Part shown: in pieces, positions 49,453 to 54,395 of the stretch
How positions within the stretch are numbered: the stretch's first letter is position 1
How the letters are laid out: each line of letters starts with the position of its first letter
The notes under the pieces: model-generated
The model's input: the letters and a program-made list of their open reading frames with translations, nothing else
What the model was told of the DNA's origin: nothing
The model's database searches: none
DNA from: Oscillospiraceae bacterium
GTDB lineage: Bacteria; Bacillota; Clostridia; Oscillospirales; CAG-272
Direction of reading: 5' to 3'
Length of the DNA: 64,000 bases
Assembly: GCA_015064555.1 (NCBI GenBank)
Contig: SVRZ01000006.1
Coordinates: forward strand, 13,043-77,042
Translations under genes and position numbers: made by a program

Positions 49453-49481
49453 TTGACTTTTCATATAATAAAATGTATAAT
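49453..49481 (+). promoter_or_regulatory. Sigma-A promoter of the lipoprotein operon
   Basis: TTGACT-17-TATAAT. Confidence 0.65.
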
Positions 49482-49524
49482 TATAATAGTTAACCATATT
49501 TATACTAAATTTACGAGGTGTGAT

Positions 49525-50181
49525 ATGAAAAAAATTATTTGCCTGTTAATGGTTTTTGCATGCATGTTCTCCATGGCATCCTGCAATCTGTTTAACAAAG
49601 ATAACGGCGATGGCGAGGTTAAATCCGACGTTGCAAAGATCTCCGACATCATCGCTGAATCTCAACCCACAAGGATCGTTTCTCACTCTGATTATCAGAT
49701 TACCGGCGGAAAGCTTCTCAAGGGTATCTACACCACTCAGGTGGACAGAGTAAGCGGAAAGTCTCAGTTTGATTTCTCTTACGTAAAGAGAGCTGATGTT
49801 GCCGATATGAATCCTGCAGGAAGCTACGTGTCCGTTGAGGGTACTGTATGCTACAATGCGGACGGAAGTGTTTCCTCCGAGATCGGCGATGCATGGCTGA
49901 GCAGCGGAACCGGATATCTTCCCTATAGCCTTTCCATAGCAGAGGTAAGATTTGAATCCTACACTGTATCCGAGGATAAGAATACGCTCACCGCAGAGAT
50001 AACCTCCGCGGAGTCCAGAAGAGTATTCGGTGTGCAGATAGAGTCAGAGGGAAATATAACCCTTACCATTGAGACCGACGGCACGTATCTCCATTACGTT
50101 ACCGTTTCTTATGCCACCGAAAATGCAACCGTTACTGTAAAGACCTCTTATGATTACGGTCTCGTAACGCTTGATTTTTAA
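49525..50181 (+). CDS. Hypothetical lipoprotein (paralog 1 of 3)
   Basis: MKKII...MASC lipobox; beta-rich body. Confidence 0.8.
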   Translation: MKKIICLLMVFACMFSMASCNLFNKDNGDGEVKSDVAKISDIIAESQPTRIVSHSDYQITGGKLLKGIYTTQVDRVSGKSQFDFSYVKRADVADMNPAGSYVSVEGTVCYNADGSVSSEIGDAWLSSGTGYLPYSLSIAEVRFESYTVSEDKNTLTAEITSAESRRVFGVQIESEGNITLTIETDGTYLHYVTVSYATENATVTVKTSYDYGLVTLDF

Positions 50182-50214
50182 CGCCAGCAATTGATTTTTG
50201 AAAGGAATAGAAAA

Positions 50215-50991
50215 ATGAAGAAGATCTTAGCTATTTTTCTGATGCTCGCTTGCGTGCTCTCTTTTGCCTCCTGCAATATCACCAATATCTTTAACAAGAA
50301 TAACGGTAATGGCGGCGGCAATGGCGGACAGACAAATACCGATGTTATTTCCAATTACAAAAATATGTACGCAGCAAGCGTACCCACCAAGTCGGTAACC
50401 ACTATTACCGAGGCTTATGAGAAGAACACTCTTGTGAGTGTTCACAGCCTTACCACCGGTCAGATCGACGGCAAGGTAGCAACCCGTCTTGACAGCACCG
50501 TTCAGACGCTTAATGACGTTTCGCTCGATGATGCTAACAAGCTTACCCTTAACCCCATCCGCACTCAGAAGTCCAGCCAGTGGTACTATGAGGGCAAGGG
50601 CGTTTCCTACAACAGCGGTAAAACCTGGGATGAAAATGGCGTTAACTTTGCTCCCGTAGCAGGCTCTATATCTATAAACCTTGACGAATCCAACTTCAAG
50701 TCTGTTAACCACACCGTTGAGGGTGGAGTCGAGACTCTCGTTCTTGAGGTCGATGCAGACAAGATGGACGTAGTTCTCAGCAACTTTATGTATGAGGGCC
50801 AGACCTTTGGATACGATGCTACCGTAACTATAGTATCGGCAGGCGGACGTATTTCTTCTATCCTTATCGAGTACGTTGTTGAGCAGTACGAGATAGGCGA
50901 AATGGATACCGAGGTCGTTATAAGCGAGATAAATATGTCCATAAGAGTTGATTATTCATACGACCTTCAGGACATAAGCTTCGATAACTGA
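50215..50991 (+). CDS. Hypothetical lipoprotein (paralog 2 of 3)
   Basis: MKKIL...FASC lipobox; N/G-rich linker; beta-rich body. Confidence 0.8.
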   Translation: MKKILAIFLMLACVLSFASCNITNIFNKNNGNGGGNGGQTNTDVISNYKNMYAASVPTKSVTTITEAYEKNTLVSVHSLTTGQIDGKVATRLDSTVQTLNDVSLDDANKLTLNPIRTQKSSQWYYEGKGVSYNSGKTWDENGVNFAPVAGSISINLDESNFKSVNHTVEGGVETLVLEVDADKMDVVLSNFMYEGQTFGYDATVTIVSAGGRISSILIEYVVEQYEIGEMDTEVVISEINMSIRVDYSYDLQDISFDN

Positions 50992-51029
50992 GATTCTGTC
51001 CAATGCTATAGATTGAAAGGAATGAAAAA

Positions 51030-51635
51030 ATGAAAAAGATATTTTCTGTAATTCTTGTTCTTACATGCATGCTTGCACTCTTCTCTTGTGAGCTTCCGTT
51101 TGGTATCGGCGGCGGTAACAATAACGGTGGCGATACTCCCACAGGTGTTGCGGCATTCAATGAGGCTATTGCAAATACCAATGCTTCCAACGTTGTAGTT
51201 GAAACTGTAGTAAACAGTGATCTCGGTGAGCTTAACTCCAGATACGAGATAGTTTACAAGGAGGATGGCTCCGCAACCATCACCTATCATTATGAGAAGT
51301 TCAATCTTATCGGCGAGGGCGCTGATAATGAGATAAAGAGCGAGTTCGACGGAACTGTTACCCGTAATGCAGACGGTACTTATACCGGCGATATGGGTGA
51401 CGTTGATCTCAGCGGCGTTACCGCAGGCTTCAAGGTTGATCTCTCCTCTCTTGAGGTCACTATCAACGAGGCAGGTGACGTTCTTACAGCAACCGTTCCC
51501 GCAGCAAGCACCGAGGCAGTTCTCGGCTCTGCATTCTCGGAGGACGTTGCACTCGAGGTAAGCATTGCAGGCGGCGCTGTTAAGCAGATCGCTCTTACCT
51601 TCGCAAGCGGAAGCGCTACCTATACATACGATTAA
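51030..51635 (+). CDS. Hypothetical lipoprotein (paralog 3 of 3)
   Basis: MKKIF...LFSC lipobox; G/N-rich linker; beta-rich body. Confidence 0.8.
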   Translation: MKKIFSVILVLTCMLALFSCELPFGIGGGNNNGGDTPTGVAAFNEAIANTNASNVVVETVVNSDLGELNSRYEIVYKEDGSATITYHYEKFNLIGEGADNEIKSEFDGTVTRNADGTYTGDMGDVDLSGVTAGFKVDLSSLEVTINEAGDVLTATVPAASTEAVLGSAFSEDVALEVSIAGGAVKQIALTFASGSATYTYD

Positions 51636-51671
51636 TTGCGTCCGGAGCCTTTCGGCAAAAACGGATAAAAA

Positions 51672-51715
51672 TAAAACAAGCGAGCGAGCAGTTTTTTGCT
51701 CGCTCGCTTGTTTTA
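51672..51715 (+). terminator. Terminator of the lipoprotein operon
   Basis: Perfect 19-bp inverted repeat TAAAACAAGCGAGCGAGCA/TGCTCGCTCGCTTGTTTTA. Confidence 0.85.
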
Positions 51716-51748
51716 CCTCGTGCCTCCTTACATATTTTATAAAAGCTC

Positions 51749-51777
51749 TTGATTTTTTACTTCGATTGTGATAACAT
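51749..51777 (+). promoter_or_regulatory. Sigma-A promoter upstream of the structured leader
   Basis: TTGATT-17-TAACAT with TG extension. Confidence 0.5.
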
Positions 51778-51781
51778 AATA

Positions 51782-51999
51782 TTGCCAAACAATCTCAATA
51801 TTCGCAGTTATAGTTTTTCTCTTAAAAAAGAGAAGCTATAGCTTTTTTCGTCATACTTCCGGGAATAATCGTTTTGGTAAAAACGCGGCTCCTGCTCCCG
51901 GGTGTATGCTAAGCCTATACTGCGAAGAGATTGTTTGGCGACAATTGGAGTTCTGCGTTTTTCAGTGCGGCAACTTCGGTTGTCGCACTTTTATATTTA
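51782..51999 (+). ncRNA. Candidate structured cis-regulatory leader RNA or attenuator (family not identified)
   Basis: 15-bp closing stem 51782-51796/51927-51941, 8-bp stem 51801-51808/51919-51926, inner stems, then a UUCG-loop hairpin 51964-51989 plus U-rich tail just before the RBS. Confidence 0.6.
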
Positions 52000-52010
52000 A
52001 GGAGGAAACT

Positions 52011-54395
52011 ATGAAAAAAAGAATTCTTTTTGCCTCGGTATGCTTGGCTATGCTTTTGGTCCTTGCCTCATGCGATTTCTTTAAGCACAAGCACGCACCG
52101 AGCGATGCGGTGAGAGAAAACGAGGTCGCCGCCACCTGTCAATCGAGCGGCAGTTATGATGAAGTTGTCTATTGTTCTTCATGCGGTGAAGAAATGAGCA
52201 GAACTCAACAAACGGTGGATCGGATATCCGAGCATAAGCCTGCAGAACCTGTCAGAGAAAACGAGGTCGCCGCGACCTGTAACTCGTTTGGCAGCTATGA
52301 TAAGGTGATTTATTGCGCTTTCTCTGATTGCGGTGCCGAACTCAGCAGAGAAGTGAAGGTGATAGAGAAGAACGATCATTCGCCCGATGATCCGGTAATT
52401 GAAAATAAGATCGATGCCACCTGCACCGAGGGCGGTAGCTATAATGAGGTTGTTTATTGCGCTGTTTGCGAGGAGGAGCTATCGCATAGCAGCAAGACAA
52501 TAGAAAAGTACGGGCACGATTACGTTGACGGAAAATGCCTCGGATGCGGAGAAAATAAAGAAAATCTTGATCTGGAATTTATCTTGAATAGCGACAGCAT
52601 GGGATATAGCATTAGCGGTATTGGTAAAAGCACAGTATCGCATATAGCTATTCCTTCGGTTTATGAGGACCTTCCTGTGACGACAATTTTGAGCGGTGCC
52701 TTTTCCGAGGGAACGTATATCAAGAGTATAACAGTTCCTTCAAGCATAACCTTAATTGAGGGAGGTGCATTTTCCGGATGCTCATCTCTCGAAAGCATAG
52801 TTCTTCCGTTTGTTGGAGAAAGAATAAAAACCTCGGCAGACAAGTATCAGTATCCGCTGGGGTATATATTCGGAACAACCGAGTATGAAGGATCTGTCGC
52901 TACAGCGCAACGCTATAGAGGAAGCTCTGCAAGTACTACTCAATATACCGAGACGACATTTTATATCCCAAAAGCTTTAAAGAACGTGACTGTTACGGGT
53001 GGAGATATTCTTTACGGCGCTTTTTACGGCTGTAATCATCTTGTAACCGTTAAAATTCCCAATGTTACTTCGATAGGTCGCTCTGCGTTTAATAGGTGCA
53101 CGGCACTCAGAGATTTTGTTATCCCTGAGAGCGTTACCGATATCGGTGTTTATGCGTTTTTATATTGCTCTTCGTTGAAAGAGATCGTTATACCGGATGC
53201 GGTAAGTGTGATCTGTGACAATGCATTTGAATATTGCACAAATCTTAAAAGCATATCGCTGGGCAAGGGGATTAAGGATATAGGCAGTTATGCTTTTTCG
53301 AATTGCACCAATATTCAATACATATATTTCAATGGCTCGAATATGAATAATTCATACAAGAATAATTATATTTTCCAGTGCATTGGTCAGAGCGGTCCCG
53401 GCATAAATCTTGTTATAGGGTCTGACGCAACCGTAATTCCGGCGTATTTATTCGCTCCGTCCAATTCCGTTGCTGTTGCACCTAAAATAGTCAGCGTGGA
53501 ATTTGAGGAAAAAAGCATATGCCAGTCGATTGGAGTGTGCTCATTCTGGTCTTGCGCTTTTCTTGAAAATATAACGATCCCCGAATCTGTAACACAAATC
53601 GGGGAATGGGCATTCAGATATTGCACGGGACTTCAAAGCATCACAATTCCAGGTAACGTGTTAAGCATAGGCGATGCGGCATTTTATCACTGTGTTAGTC
53701 TGGAAAGTGTAACAATGGAAAAGGGAATTAAAAGCATCGGCAGCTCGGCATTTTACGAATGCTATAGACTGGCAACCATAACAATTCCCGAAGGAATCGT
53801 TACTATTAATGCTTCGGCATTTACCTCTTGCTATAAGCTTTTAGAGGTGATAAATAAGTCATCGCTGGCGATAACGGCAGGCTCTGAGGATTTTGGAGGA
53901 GTAGCATATTATGCCATGGAGGTACACTCCGGAGATAGCAAAATAGTCAACAGAAACGGATATTTGTTCTATAAATATCAGGATCGTAACTATCTTATCG
54001 ATTATGTTGGTGAAGATACAGAGCTGTTGCTTCCCGAAAGCTTTGATGGCGAGTGCTATGAAATTTATGATTATGCATTTTATCTGCGCAGTGATATAAA
54101 GAATGTGGTTATCTCAAAAGGGGTAACCGGCATTGGAAGAATGGCGTTCTTGGGATGCACGGGATTAACCAATATAACAATACCCGAGAGTGTGACTTAT
54201 ATCGGAGCTTATGCTTTTCAGAATTGCAGTAATTTGAAATATGTTACGTTCGCTATAGTAAACGGTTGGTGGATAAACACCGTATCAGATGCATCGAACG
54301 GAACGTATATTTTCTCCGATTACAATGGAAACACATCCCAAGCTGCAGAATGTCTGAAATCAACTTACTGTAAATATTACTGGTATCGTGATTGA
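52011..54395 (+). CDS. BspA-type leucine-rich repeat (LRR_5) surface lipoprotein with N-terminal Cys/His repeats
   Basis: LASC lipobox; many IP.SVT.IG..AF..C..L repeats; three ATC...G.Y..V.YC..C repeats; AAGGAGG RBS. Confidence 0.9.
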   Translation: MKKRILFASVCLAMLLVLASCDFFKHKHAPSDAVRENEVAATCQSSGSYDEVVYCSSCGEEMSRTQQTVDRISEHKPAEPVRENEVAATCNSFGSYDKVIYCAFSDCGAELSREVKVIEKNDHSPDDPVIENKIDATCTEGGSYNEVVYCAVCEEELSHSSKTIEKYGHDYVDGKCLGCGENKENLDLEFILNSDSMGYSISGIGKSTVSHIAIPSVYEDLPVTTILSGAFSEGTYIKSITVPSSITLIEGGAFSGCSSLESIVLPFVGERIKTSADKYQYPLGYIFGTTEYEGSVATAQRYRGSSASTTQYTETTFYIPKALKNVTVTGGDILYGAFYGCNHLVTVKIPNVTSIGRSAFNRCTALRDFVIPESVTDIGVYAFLYCSSLKEIVIPDAVSVICDNAFEYCTNLKSISLGKGIKDIGSYAFSNCTNIQYIYFNGSNMNNSYKNNYIFQCIGQSGPGINLVIGSDATVIPAYLFAPSNSVAVAPKIVSVEFEEKSICQSIGVCSFWSCAFLENITIPESVTQIGEWAFRYCTGLQSITIPGNVLSIGDAAFYHCVSLESVTMEKGIKSIGSSAFYECYRLATITIPEGIVTINASAFTSCYKLLEVINKSSLAITAGSEDFGGVAYYAMEVHSGDSKIVNRNGYLFYKYQDRNYLIDYVGEDTELLLPESFDGECYEIYDYAFYLRSDIKNVVISKGVTGIGRMAFLGCTGLTNITIPESVTYIGAYAFQNCSNLKYVTFAIVNGWWINTVSDASNGTYIFSDYNGNTSQAAECLKSTYCKYYWYRD
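52092..52550 (+). repeat. Three ~47-aa Cys/His repeats plus a partial unit
   Basis: H.P...V.EN...ATC...G.Y..V.YC..C..E.S x3, then HDYVDGKCLGCG. Confidence 0.85.

Follow-up and report, generated by a model that had tools for sequence, protein, structure and literature searches.

Between positions 51749 and 52010 of a 64,000-nucleotide stretch from an Oscillospiraceae bacterium (GenBank assembly GCA_015064555.1, contig SVRZ01000006.1, positions 13,043 to 77,042; this whole stretch is called the window below) lies a structured RNA leader, upstream of a gene for a lipoprotein with BspA-type leucine-rich repeats (LRR). We propose that this leader is a cis-acting transcription attenuator at the 5' end of the lipoprotein mRNA and a member of a large RNA family, widespread in gut and rumen Clostridia and apparently undescribed; on balance we consider this reading probable. 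We observe at least five covarying helices, mutually exclusive pairings, a promoter at a fixed position and a consistent location in front of genes, all of which indicate that the family is real. A preliminary description, made from the DNA alone, had taken the leader for an uncharacterised attenuator or antitermination element, or for a standalone noncoding RNA. Its observation of a structured leader is confirmed, and its interpretation is supported by the homologues described here. Judged from sequence comparison, an attenuator built as a set of competing structures appears well supported.

The unit reads from left to right on the forward strand. Its promoter (51749-51777) consists of the -35 box TTGATT (51749-51754), a 17-nucleotide spacer and an extended -10 element, TG-n-TAACAT, with the -10 box itself at 51772-51777. 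The 5' arm of the first helix, P1 (51782-51796), lies at or adjoins the inferred transcription start. It pairs with 51927-51941 through 13 perfect pairs (51784-51796 with 51927-51939), then a G.U pair and one further pair; apart from these two arms, the exact 13-mer is found nowhere in the genome. An AAUA bulge (51797-51800) joins P1 to P2, formed by TTCGCAGT and ACTGCGAA (51801-51808 with 51919-51926), and the 3' arms of P2 and P1 follow one another at 51919-51926 and 51927-51941. Within this stalk stand two hairpins. P3, long and rich in A and U in the window copy, spans 51806-51843 at -15.7 kcal/mol and runs into six U residues (51844-51849), an arrangement that is terminator-like or pause-like. 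P4 (51852-51908) has the stem CATACTTCCGGGA/TCCCGGGTGTATG (51852-51864 with 51896-51908), capped by a conserved loop at 51870-51892 with the sequence ..UUGGUAAAAACGCGGCUCC. This loop carries ..UUGGUAAAAACGC..CUCC, with an A-run at 51879-51883, and holds a small CGTTTT/AAAACG pairing (51870-51885).

Downstream of the stalk come three elements that overlap or compete. The linker GCGACAAUUGGAGUU (51938-51952) is the 5' strand of an antiterminator whose partner is 51972-51986; it shares four nucleotides with the end of P1 and six with the tail. The tail itself, GGAGUUCUGCGUUUUU (51947-51962), is complementary over 14-15 nucleotides to the P4 loop at 51879-51892, and the two strands would form a pseudoknot helix, here called the loop-tail helix (-16.7 kcal/mol as a duplex in the window copy). 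Last is a predicted intrinsic terminator (51965-51992), with a stem of 51965-51974 paired to 51979-51988, the loop UUCG and four U residues at 51989-51992. A terminator scan reports it as a hairpin at 51964-51989 with 11 pairs, 6 of them G-C, followed by TTTTATATTT, at -17.3 kcal/mol; it thus has the G+C-rich hairpin and the U-run of an intrinsic terminator on the transcribed strand. After a gap of 7 nucleotides comes the ribosome binding site (RBS), AAGGAGG (51999-52005), and the regulated gene runs from the ATG at 52011 to its stop at 54395.

All pairings listed in the preliminary description, namely P1, P2, the inner hairpin with its T6, P4, CGTTTT/AAAACG, the terminator and GCGACAA/TTGTCGC, are present in the sequence. 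The last of these exists but reaches further than had been noted: it is the start of an alternative helix of 15 positions, the antiterminator. The loop-tail helix had been missed, and it is probably the deciding element. The RNA as a whole is far more stable than expected from its composition, with a minimum free energy of -86.8 kcal/mol for 51783-52010 against -53.7 +/- 4.1 in 200 shuffled sequences, none of which was as low (z = -8.06).

How might such a leader control its gene? Transcription would begin at the first base of P1. The leader would then fold into a stalk of P1 and P2 bearing P3, a small hairpin with its U-run, and the long P4 displaying its A-rich loop; the tail of 15 nucleotides that follows the linker could pair with that loop. 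In the OFF state, a complete P1 and the loop-tail helix would together occupy both ends of the linker; the terminator would form and transcription would stop before the gene. In the ON state, either the loop-tail helix or the last pairs of P1 would be prevented from forming, and the linker would pair with the loop and 3' half of the terminator, allowing read-through into the gene. The order of synthesis would fit this scheme, as the loop would fold on itself first and the tail, starting at the single-stranded A-run, would invade it shortly before synthesis of the terminator. P3 and its U-run may act as a pause that gives time for these events. Hairpin and U-rich pauses are known to act in this way in Bacillus leaders. 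We think that the trigger is a small molecule or ion, or a protein, acting on the conserved loop or the junction.

The competition centers on the linker, of which P1 claims the first four bases and the loop-tail helix the last six; the antiterminator requires it whole. In the window copy, P1 with the antiterminator comes to -86.2 kcal/mol and the structure with the terminator forced to -83.3 kcal/mol, the latter before the -16.7 kcal/mol of the loop-tail duplex is added and before the small hairpins inside the P4 loop are lost. The two states are thus close in energy.

The leader is not alone in its genome. A BLAST search with the element found a second full copy at 72% identity, in which the two arms of P1 have changed together, and six further copies of the 3' part. 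Seven full copies in this genome have their parts in identical order, each behind a near-consensus promoter. Between promoter and terminator they share the P1-P2 stalk, a small hairpin followed by a U-run, a long hairpin whose loop is A-rich, and a 15-nucleotide tail complementary to that loop. A pattern derived from the conserved 3' part found at least 120 stretches in named metagenome-assembled genomes (MAGs) of Clostridia from human, ruminant and other guts. Among the pattern matches listed, 121 in number, 112 have a recognisable 5' arm of P1. The nine that do not (L024, L031, L038, L057, L070, L089, L108, L111 and L129) include at least one, from an Acidobacteriaceae record, that resembles a chance match.

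We examined covariation in two collections. One, S1, holds 118 units: the seven copies from the genome itself and the pattern matches. The other, S2, holds 70 more divergent matches to a covariance model, drawn from 60 regions of related genomes and 5 extra loci of the same genome. Ninety-six sequences of the main structural class were aligned, leaving out L022, which is truncated, and L126, in which no terminator was found. In this alignment P1 is paired in 98.5% of cells, with 185 double changes against 54.3 in shuffled alignments (0 of 500 shuffles as high); sliding the strands reduces pairing to 37-52%. Among the divergent matches, 60 of the 70 have a P1 of at least 12 of 14 pairs, and even the sequence-conserved inner part of the helix varies in step. 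Position 2 is CG in 43 units, UA in 10 and UG in 5; position 3 is CG in 32, UA in 15, GC in 5 and AU in 2; position 5 is CG in 32 and AU in 21. Over positions 1-12 of P1 in this set there are 42 G.U or U.G pairs and only 4 A.C or C.A. Selection therefore acts on the RNA of this strand and not on a DNA repeat. The bulge next to P1 reads AATA in 99 of the 118 pattern-derived units and in 40 of 59 divergent ones.

The inner domain is variable and poorly aligned by MAFFT. For P2, P4 and the loop-tail helix we therefore dispensed with an alignment and compared the duplex energy of each strand with its own partner and with the partners from other units. For P2 the own partners give -13.68 kcal/mol and the others -6.09; for the P4 stem the values are -18.39 and -7.73 (n = 140 main-class units; 0 of 2000 permutations reach the observed value in either case). 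A control with an unrelated pair of windows gives -7.50 and -6.25 kcal/mol. The loop-tail helix behaves likewise, at -17.26 kcal/mol with a unit's own tail and -14.54 with the tails of others (n = 177; 0 of 2000 permutations reach the observed mean), and the difference is larger in S2 (-17.02 and -12.35; n = 59). A unit's own tail ranks within the best tenth for 46% of units, and clear compensatory variants are present.

The two states of the proposed platform are both conserved. Across 109 sequences the terminator is paired in 97.8% of cells, with double changes at 6 of its 10 pairs, a result that none of 500 shuffles reaches. In the same sequences the antiterminator is paired in 92.2% of cells, against 27-40% when the partner strand is slid; 12 of the 15 linker positions are fixed by the search pattern in most of these rows, and the evidence comes mainly from the partner strand. 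One antiterminator position is unpaired in 104 of the 109. The terminator loop, a part that is usually under no constraint, varies only in ways that preserve the alternative pairing: column 55 is U in 87 sequences and C in 22, opposite G. At the pair between columns 28 and 52 we count UA 74 times, UG 20 times and CG 12 times, that is, 12 compensatory changes at one pair. In divergent copies from the same genome the antiterminator strand is shifted into the 3' arm of P1 itself. From the 96 aligned sequences RNAalifold selects P1 and the antiterminator. The terminator/antiterminator alternative on which the earlier reading as an attenuator relied is in this way conserved, and covariation among homologues, when looked for, proved abundant in P1, P2, P4, the loop-tail helix and the terminator.

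Folded singly, the sequences give P1, the AAUA bulge, P2, a junction, a small P3 ending in ..UAUACC with a U-run, and a long P4 with its conserved loop. A short class (37 of 177 units) has neither P3 nor the long P4; in these units the A-run pairs with a U-run just upstream. By a strict motif, a U-run of 4-7 begins 55-70 nucleotides from the start of P1 in 81 of the 140 main-class units. The P3 hairpin of the family has a median energy of -6.0 kcal/mol, and that of the window copy, at -14 to -15.7 kcal/mol, is unusually strong. The preliminary description had called the window hairpin with its T6 terminator-like. The hairpin and U-run are indeed conserved, but P3 is usually weak, and a pause signal is likelier in most copies. 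The strong P3 of the window copy could terminate part of the transcripts early.

The position of the promoter is as regular as the structure. Of 169 homologous units with sufficient sequence on the upstream side, 138 are preceded by a promoter that scores 10 or more out of 12, a level attained by only 8 of 169 shuffled controls. The distance from the end of the -10 box to the GCC is 6 nucleotides in 126 of the 138 promoters, and 129 have the extended TG. The window promoter is weaker, scoring 8 of 12, and a consensus scan did not report it, though it sits at the family position. Given this fixed distance, the transcript is expected to begin with P1. A start site near 51783, as first suggested, fits the family; the conserved promoter places it at the first base of the structure and not downstream.

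What lies behind the leaders? In 104 of 119 units, no more than 220 nucleotides separate the terminator from the start of a same-strand open reading frame (ORF) that is 45 codons or longer and has a Shine-Dalgarno-like site. The remaining units stand at contig ends, lack an ORF of this kind or precede another unit. Counted roughly with regular expressions, 38 of the 104 ORFs have a lipobox-like motif and 28 others an N-terminal hydrophobic span; 9 encode small proteins with a CCCDECD motif, and 5 begin with a zinc ribbon. A Pfam scan covered 62 of the 104, those left out being mainly ORFs cut short by the 300-nucleotide flanks. It found LRR_5 (the BspA type) in 11 proteins, one of them below the curated cut-off, Listeria-Bacteroides repeats in 5, SHOCT in 4, C-type lectin in 3, zinc ribbons in 3, collagen in 2 and WG repeats in 2, while 25 have no Pfam family; single cases include CHAP plus ricin, LiaF, MazE/AbrB, AMP-binding and TnpV. 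The genes behind the leaders are thus mostly those of lipoproteins, BspA-LRR proteins and small membrane proteins. The gene in the window (52011-54395) agrees with the surface protein that had been proposed: its product of 794 amino acids has BspA-type LRR repeats (PF13306, E = 9e-88) and an N-terminal lipobox.

Two features of these proteins recur. After its lipobox, the N-terminus of the window lipoprotein (52011-52500) has several repeats of a short Cys module, ..ATC..GSY..V.YC..CG.E.., a module that recurs in many lipoproteins, otherwise unrelated, whose genes follow other leader copies. The commonest single gene behind the leader, with 9 of the 104 ORFs (L017, L020, L026, L051, L082, L100, L110, L117 and L128), encodes a Cys-rich small protein of 52-73 amino acids with the invariant core ..CLGNGE..FECCCDECDYYLLCFPEFD... 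The copy from L017, the only one scanned, matches no Pfam family.

For searches of whole genomes we used a covariance model of the 3' part, R1; some of the genomes that do not match are incomplete, and the prevalences below are counts of genomes in which the element was found. The window's own genome has 13 matches, 10 of them with E <= 1.7e-15. Among relatives, this genome included, R1 matches 29 of 41. Within the genus 21 of 24 genomes match, each between 1 and 14 times, and elsewhere in the order 7 of 16 other families do. Across the class it is found in 35 of 151 evenly drawn genomes, which represent 26 of 108 genera, a single genome holding as many as 15 matches. A plasmid collection gave no match to the element, and a phage collection gave one only, at 230-640 of L210 (MT835503.1, an unverified phage scaffold from human faeces). 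This unit has a promoter, a covarying P1, an A-rich loop, a matching tail and a terminator; it lies near one end of the 49-kb phage-like scaffold, before an unannotated ORF.

Not every match has this complete form or stands singly. Elsewhere in the window's own genome, at 63295-63362 of contig C43 (reverse strand), there is a 3' part with tail and terminator (E = 1.7e-18), upstream of which we recognise no promoter, 5' arm of P1 or A-rich loop; this copy, apparently situated where a coding region ends, is possibly a remnant. Complete units, from promoter through leader to terminator, also occur in tandem with no ORF between them, as at L173 (90-720, forward strand), where the order is short-class unit, main-class unit, gene, and at L020 (matches at 1201 and 1525). 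In whole genomes, pairs of units lie 209-282 nucleotides apart, for example in G007 (contigs C18 and C32) and G037 (contig C8), and contig C6 of G122 has three in a row. Such tandem units could be stacked attenuators or independent small RNA genes.

The surroundings of the window copy are of some interest as well. A perfect 19-bp hairpin at 51672-51715, with an A-run and a T-run on its sides, forms a two-way terminator-like site between the leader promoter and the upstream gene (51030-51635, family not known). Because of this hairpin the leader unit appears insulated from upstream transcription. Directly upstream of the leader, 49453-51635 holds three consecutive same-strand ORFs (242, 266 and 201 amino acids) without a Pfam family.

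Several points weigh against a switchable attenuator. The covariation of the loop-tail helix, on which the proposed switch turns, is weak in S1 (0.713 versus 0.651 at the central positions; energies of -17.38 versus -15.75 kcal/mol), because both strands are nearly constant there. Part of the homologues were collected with a pattern that fixes 21 bases, which biases the conservation of the linker and is only partly corrected by S2. Related sequences are not independent of one another, and the shuffle and permutation counts overstate the significance. Conservation extends to few unpaired nucleotides, and the short class (37 of 177 units) has no three-way junction, which sets the family apart from most aptamers for small molecules. 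The regulated genes share no metabolic theme that would hint at a ligand. Tandem units that run from promoter to terminator with no gene between them fit a stand-alone RNA equally well. Finally, which of the two states is ON, and that a signal shifts the balance between them at all, are things that we infer.

Could a ligand supply that signal? The leader may be a true riboswitch, whose ligand, a small molecule or ion (c-di-AMP or another nucleotide messenger, for instance), would bind an aptamer formed by P1 to P4 and the loop-tail pseudoknot; we regard this as possible, though as a tentative proposal. It would be a sharper form of the attenuator and not opposed to it, as binding of the ligand would stabilise or block the pseudoknot. 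The leader does have, as one would expect of a riboswitch, a covarying structured 5' domain coupled to an expression platform: several helices closed by P1, and a loop-tail pseudoknot directly before the alternative of terminator and antiterminator. It also occurs in many copies per genome, as c-di-GMP riboswitches are known to do. The usual RNA-binding regulators seem unavailable. ANTAR, CsrA and Hfq are all missing from the window's own genome, and across the 24 genomes of the genus the counts of carriers are 2, 0 and 0, compared with 21 for the RNA; we reject them as trans-acting factors. The ligand, if there is one, is not c-di-GMP. No match to the c-di-GMP riboswitch models RF01051 and RF01786 was found in the window's own genome, where RF01051 was a weak search, being silent in control genomes as well, and RF01786 matched one control; and GGDEF proteins (PF00990) number 0 in this genome (82% complete) and in the copy-rich genomes G007 (14 copies), G019 (8), G004 (6), G010 (6) and G014 (5), which are 92-99% complete. 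As for c-di-AMP, a diadenylate cyclase is encoded in the window's own genome and the known c-di-AMP riboswitch is found in none of 41 genomes, but it is absent equally from those with and without the motif, which says nothing either way. The short class without P3 and the long P4 stem speaks against an aptamer, as do the small number of conserved single-stranded positions and a pseudoknot of 15 bp, unusually long for a ligand pocket. With similar reserve we put forward a wider proposal: that this is a new riboswitch class for a global physiological signal, that in uncultured Clostridia of the gut and rumen it is the chief control on the variable surface proteome, that the up to 15 copies in a genome form one regulon, and that the 15-bp loop-tail pseudoknot acts as an anti-antiterminator. 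That proteome would comprise adhesin-like BspA-LRR proteins, lectin-like and repeat lipoproteins, and small membrane proteins.

The remaining explanations do without a switch in the RNA, or without a leader. The near-consensus promoters, for which a brake would be useful, the inclusion of the first transcribed bases in P1, the heterogeneous genes downstream and the failure to find a regulator would all suit a leader that responds to no signal, in which the 5' helix protects the end of the mRNA, the terminator is a constitutive, leaky brake or insulator, and the alternative pairings merely tune the leak. We think this rather unlikely: the conservation of the terminator's loop and 3' half is precisely what pairing with the linker requires, the two states are nearly isoenergetic, and keeping loop and tail complementary would be costly if nothing switches. 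It is quite unlikely, too, that each unit is the gene of a stand-alone, trans-acting small RNA of about 210 nucleotides, working for instance through an A-rich loop or tail that is complementary between copies, with gene expression a secondary effect of read-through. Each unit has its own promoter and terminator, complete units stand in tandem without an ORF between them, one full unit is on the unverified phage scaffold, and the 3' part on C43 occurs without P1 or promoter. However, a same-strand ORF directly follows 104 of 119 units, the gap from terminator to RBS is a few to tens of nucleotides, and a conserved antiterminator is sensible only if read-through matters. Least of all do we believe in an element that acts as DNA, whether an invertible switch of the cwpV kind or a miniature transposable or repeat element, which we consider very improbable. 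An inverted repeat of 13-15 bp does flank some 130 bp between a promoter and a surface-protein gene, the inner hairpin with its T6 is terminator-like in one orientation only, and the element is multi-copy. Yet the inner part has the same orientation in all 96 aligned main-class units and in all units inspected; the orientation of the element to promoter and gene is constant; no inverted homologue was seen; and none of the 14 neighbouring ORFs scanned (window 47-63 kb) encodes a recombinase. The excess of G.U over A.C pairs is strand-specific, and the nested P2, P4 and a pseudoknot-type helix extending beyond the repeats covary as well. An inversion switch is rejected on these grounds. So is a mobile or repeat element such as a miniature inverted-repeat transposable element (MITE) or a repetitive extragenic palindromic (REP) sequence: the copies lie behind their own promoters and, in 104 of 119 cases, before a same-strand ORF, with covariation that is again strand-specific. 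TnpV accounts for 1 of the 62 downstream proteins scanned.

One observation bears on how these bacteria regulate their surfaces in general. Of the three genus genomes without the leader, two (G002 and G022) have four GGDEF genes each; of the 21 genus genomes with it, 19 have none, the exceptions being G006 and G013. An either-or pattern of surface regulation is possible, with the caveat that kinship was not controlled for.

If the leader is the attenuator that we propose, one conserved RNA would control many host-facing surface proteins in abundant but uncultured Clostridia of the gut and rumen. Carried by about a quarter of the sampled genomes of the class, in up to 15 copies, it would be among the more widespread families of bacterial leader RNA outside Rfam. 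It would offer a handle on the regulation of adhesin-like proteins without the usual second-messenger and RNA-chaperone systems; in the regulon proposal the carriers are bacteria with small genomes that have no c-di-GMP signalling and neither Hfq nor CsrA. As a model system it would be compact, with a 5' helix, a loop-tail helix and the antiterminator or terminator in three-way competition, and many natural variants already provide compensatory mutants for tests of mechanism.

Has the family been described before? Rfam 15 gives no match in the 64 kb of the window; searched at E values up to 10, 51600-52100 gives only weak chance matches, the best at 22 bits against a gathering score of 119; and a search of 20 homologous loci gave nothing but a tRNA and an rRNA fragment, both lying away from the element. 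The preliminary description had recognised neither a T-box nor a common riboswitch, and Rfam agrees, both in the window and at these loci. Motif strings and keywords led to no description of the family in the literature, of which the supplements were only partly searched; an unnamed entry in a catalogue is possible. Nothing fitting appears in the accessible parts of a human-microbiome catalogue (PMC8040213), a set of 224 motifs (PMC5737381), a survey of 50 genomes (PMC11109978) and a 2026 study of noncoding sequence space (bioRxiv 10.64898/2026.10.21.760802). The motif strings are absent from the searchable supplementary files of PMC8040213, two large files lying outside the search. The parts of that catalogue consulted do contain one LRR_5-linked candidate, HMP2_9823; as an 89-nucleotide element, mostly from Bacteroidetes (31 of 33 classified copies), it is rejected as the element described here. 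The carriers of our leader are almost all uncultured lineages known as MAGs, which may explain how it was missed by motif searches based on RefSeq.

The leader is apparently a new family working on a known principle, and several systems invite comparison. Like the T-box, it is a long Firmicutes leader with a sequence-conserved antiterminator strand opposed to a terminator. It differs in having surface and membrane protein genes downstream, where no aminoacyl-tRNA or amino-acid genes are seen, and in giving no match to RF00230, even at E values up to 10 in the 500-nucleotide search. The cwpV gene of C. difficile has an invertible switch in its leader, and there too inverted repeats lie between a promoter and a surface-protein gene and enclose a terminator-like hairpin; the present element differs in its strand-specific covariation and in having neither an inverted homologue nor a recombinase nearby.

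Protein-dependent attenuators of Firmicutes include the trp leader with TRAP, pyr with PyrR, the bgl-sac RAT elements with LicT and SacY, and eut with its ANTAR protein. In these, as in our family, one conserved RNA target precedes many genes of a regulon and a choice is made between terminator and antiterminator, and the hairpin and U-run of P3 could likewise pause polymerase for a factor. Unlike them, our family serves surface genes and not a pathway, contains no known binding motif that we recognise, and occurs in a genus with ANTAR in 2 of 24 genomes and CsrA and Hfq in 0 of 24. A pseudoknot between a hairpin loop and the 3' tail is found in transcription-terminating riboswitches of the c-di-GMP-II, ZTP, preQ1 and fluoride classes. 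Compared with these, the leader has no Rfam match, a loop-tail helix of about 15 bp, a sequence-conserved P1 at +1, few conserved unpaired bases, a short class without a junction and possibly no ligand at all. Yet it resembles the c-di-GMP riboswitches of Clostridia in standing in several copies per genome upstream of surface-related genes, and it shares with the pseudoknot riboswitches as a group a 5' leader domain closed by P1, a hairpin loop that pairs with the 3' tail near the expression platform, and the competition there between antiterminator and terminator.

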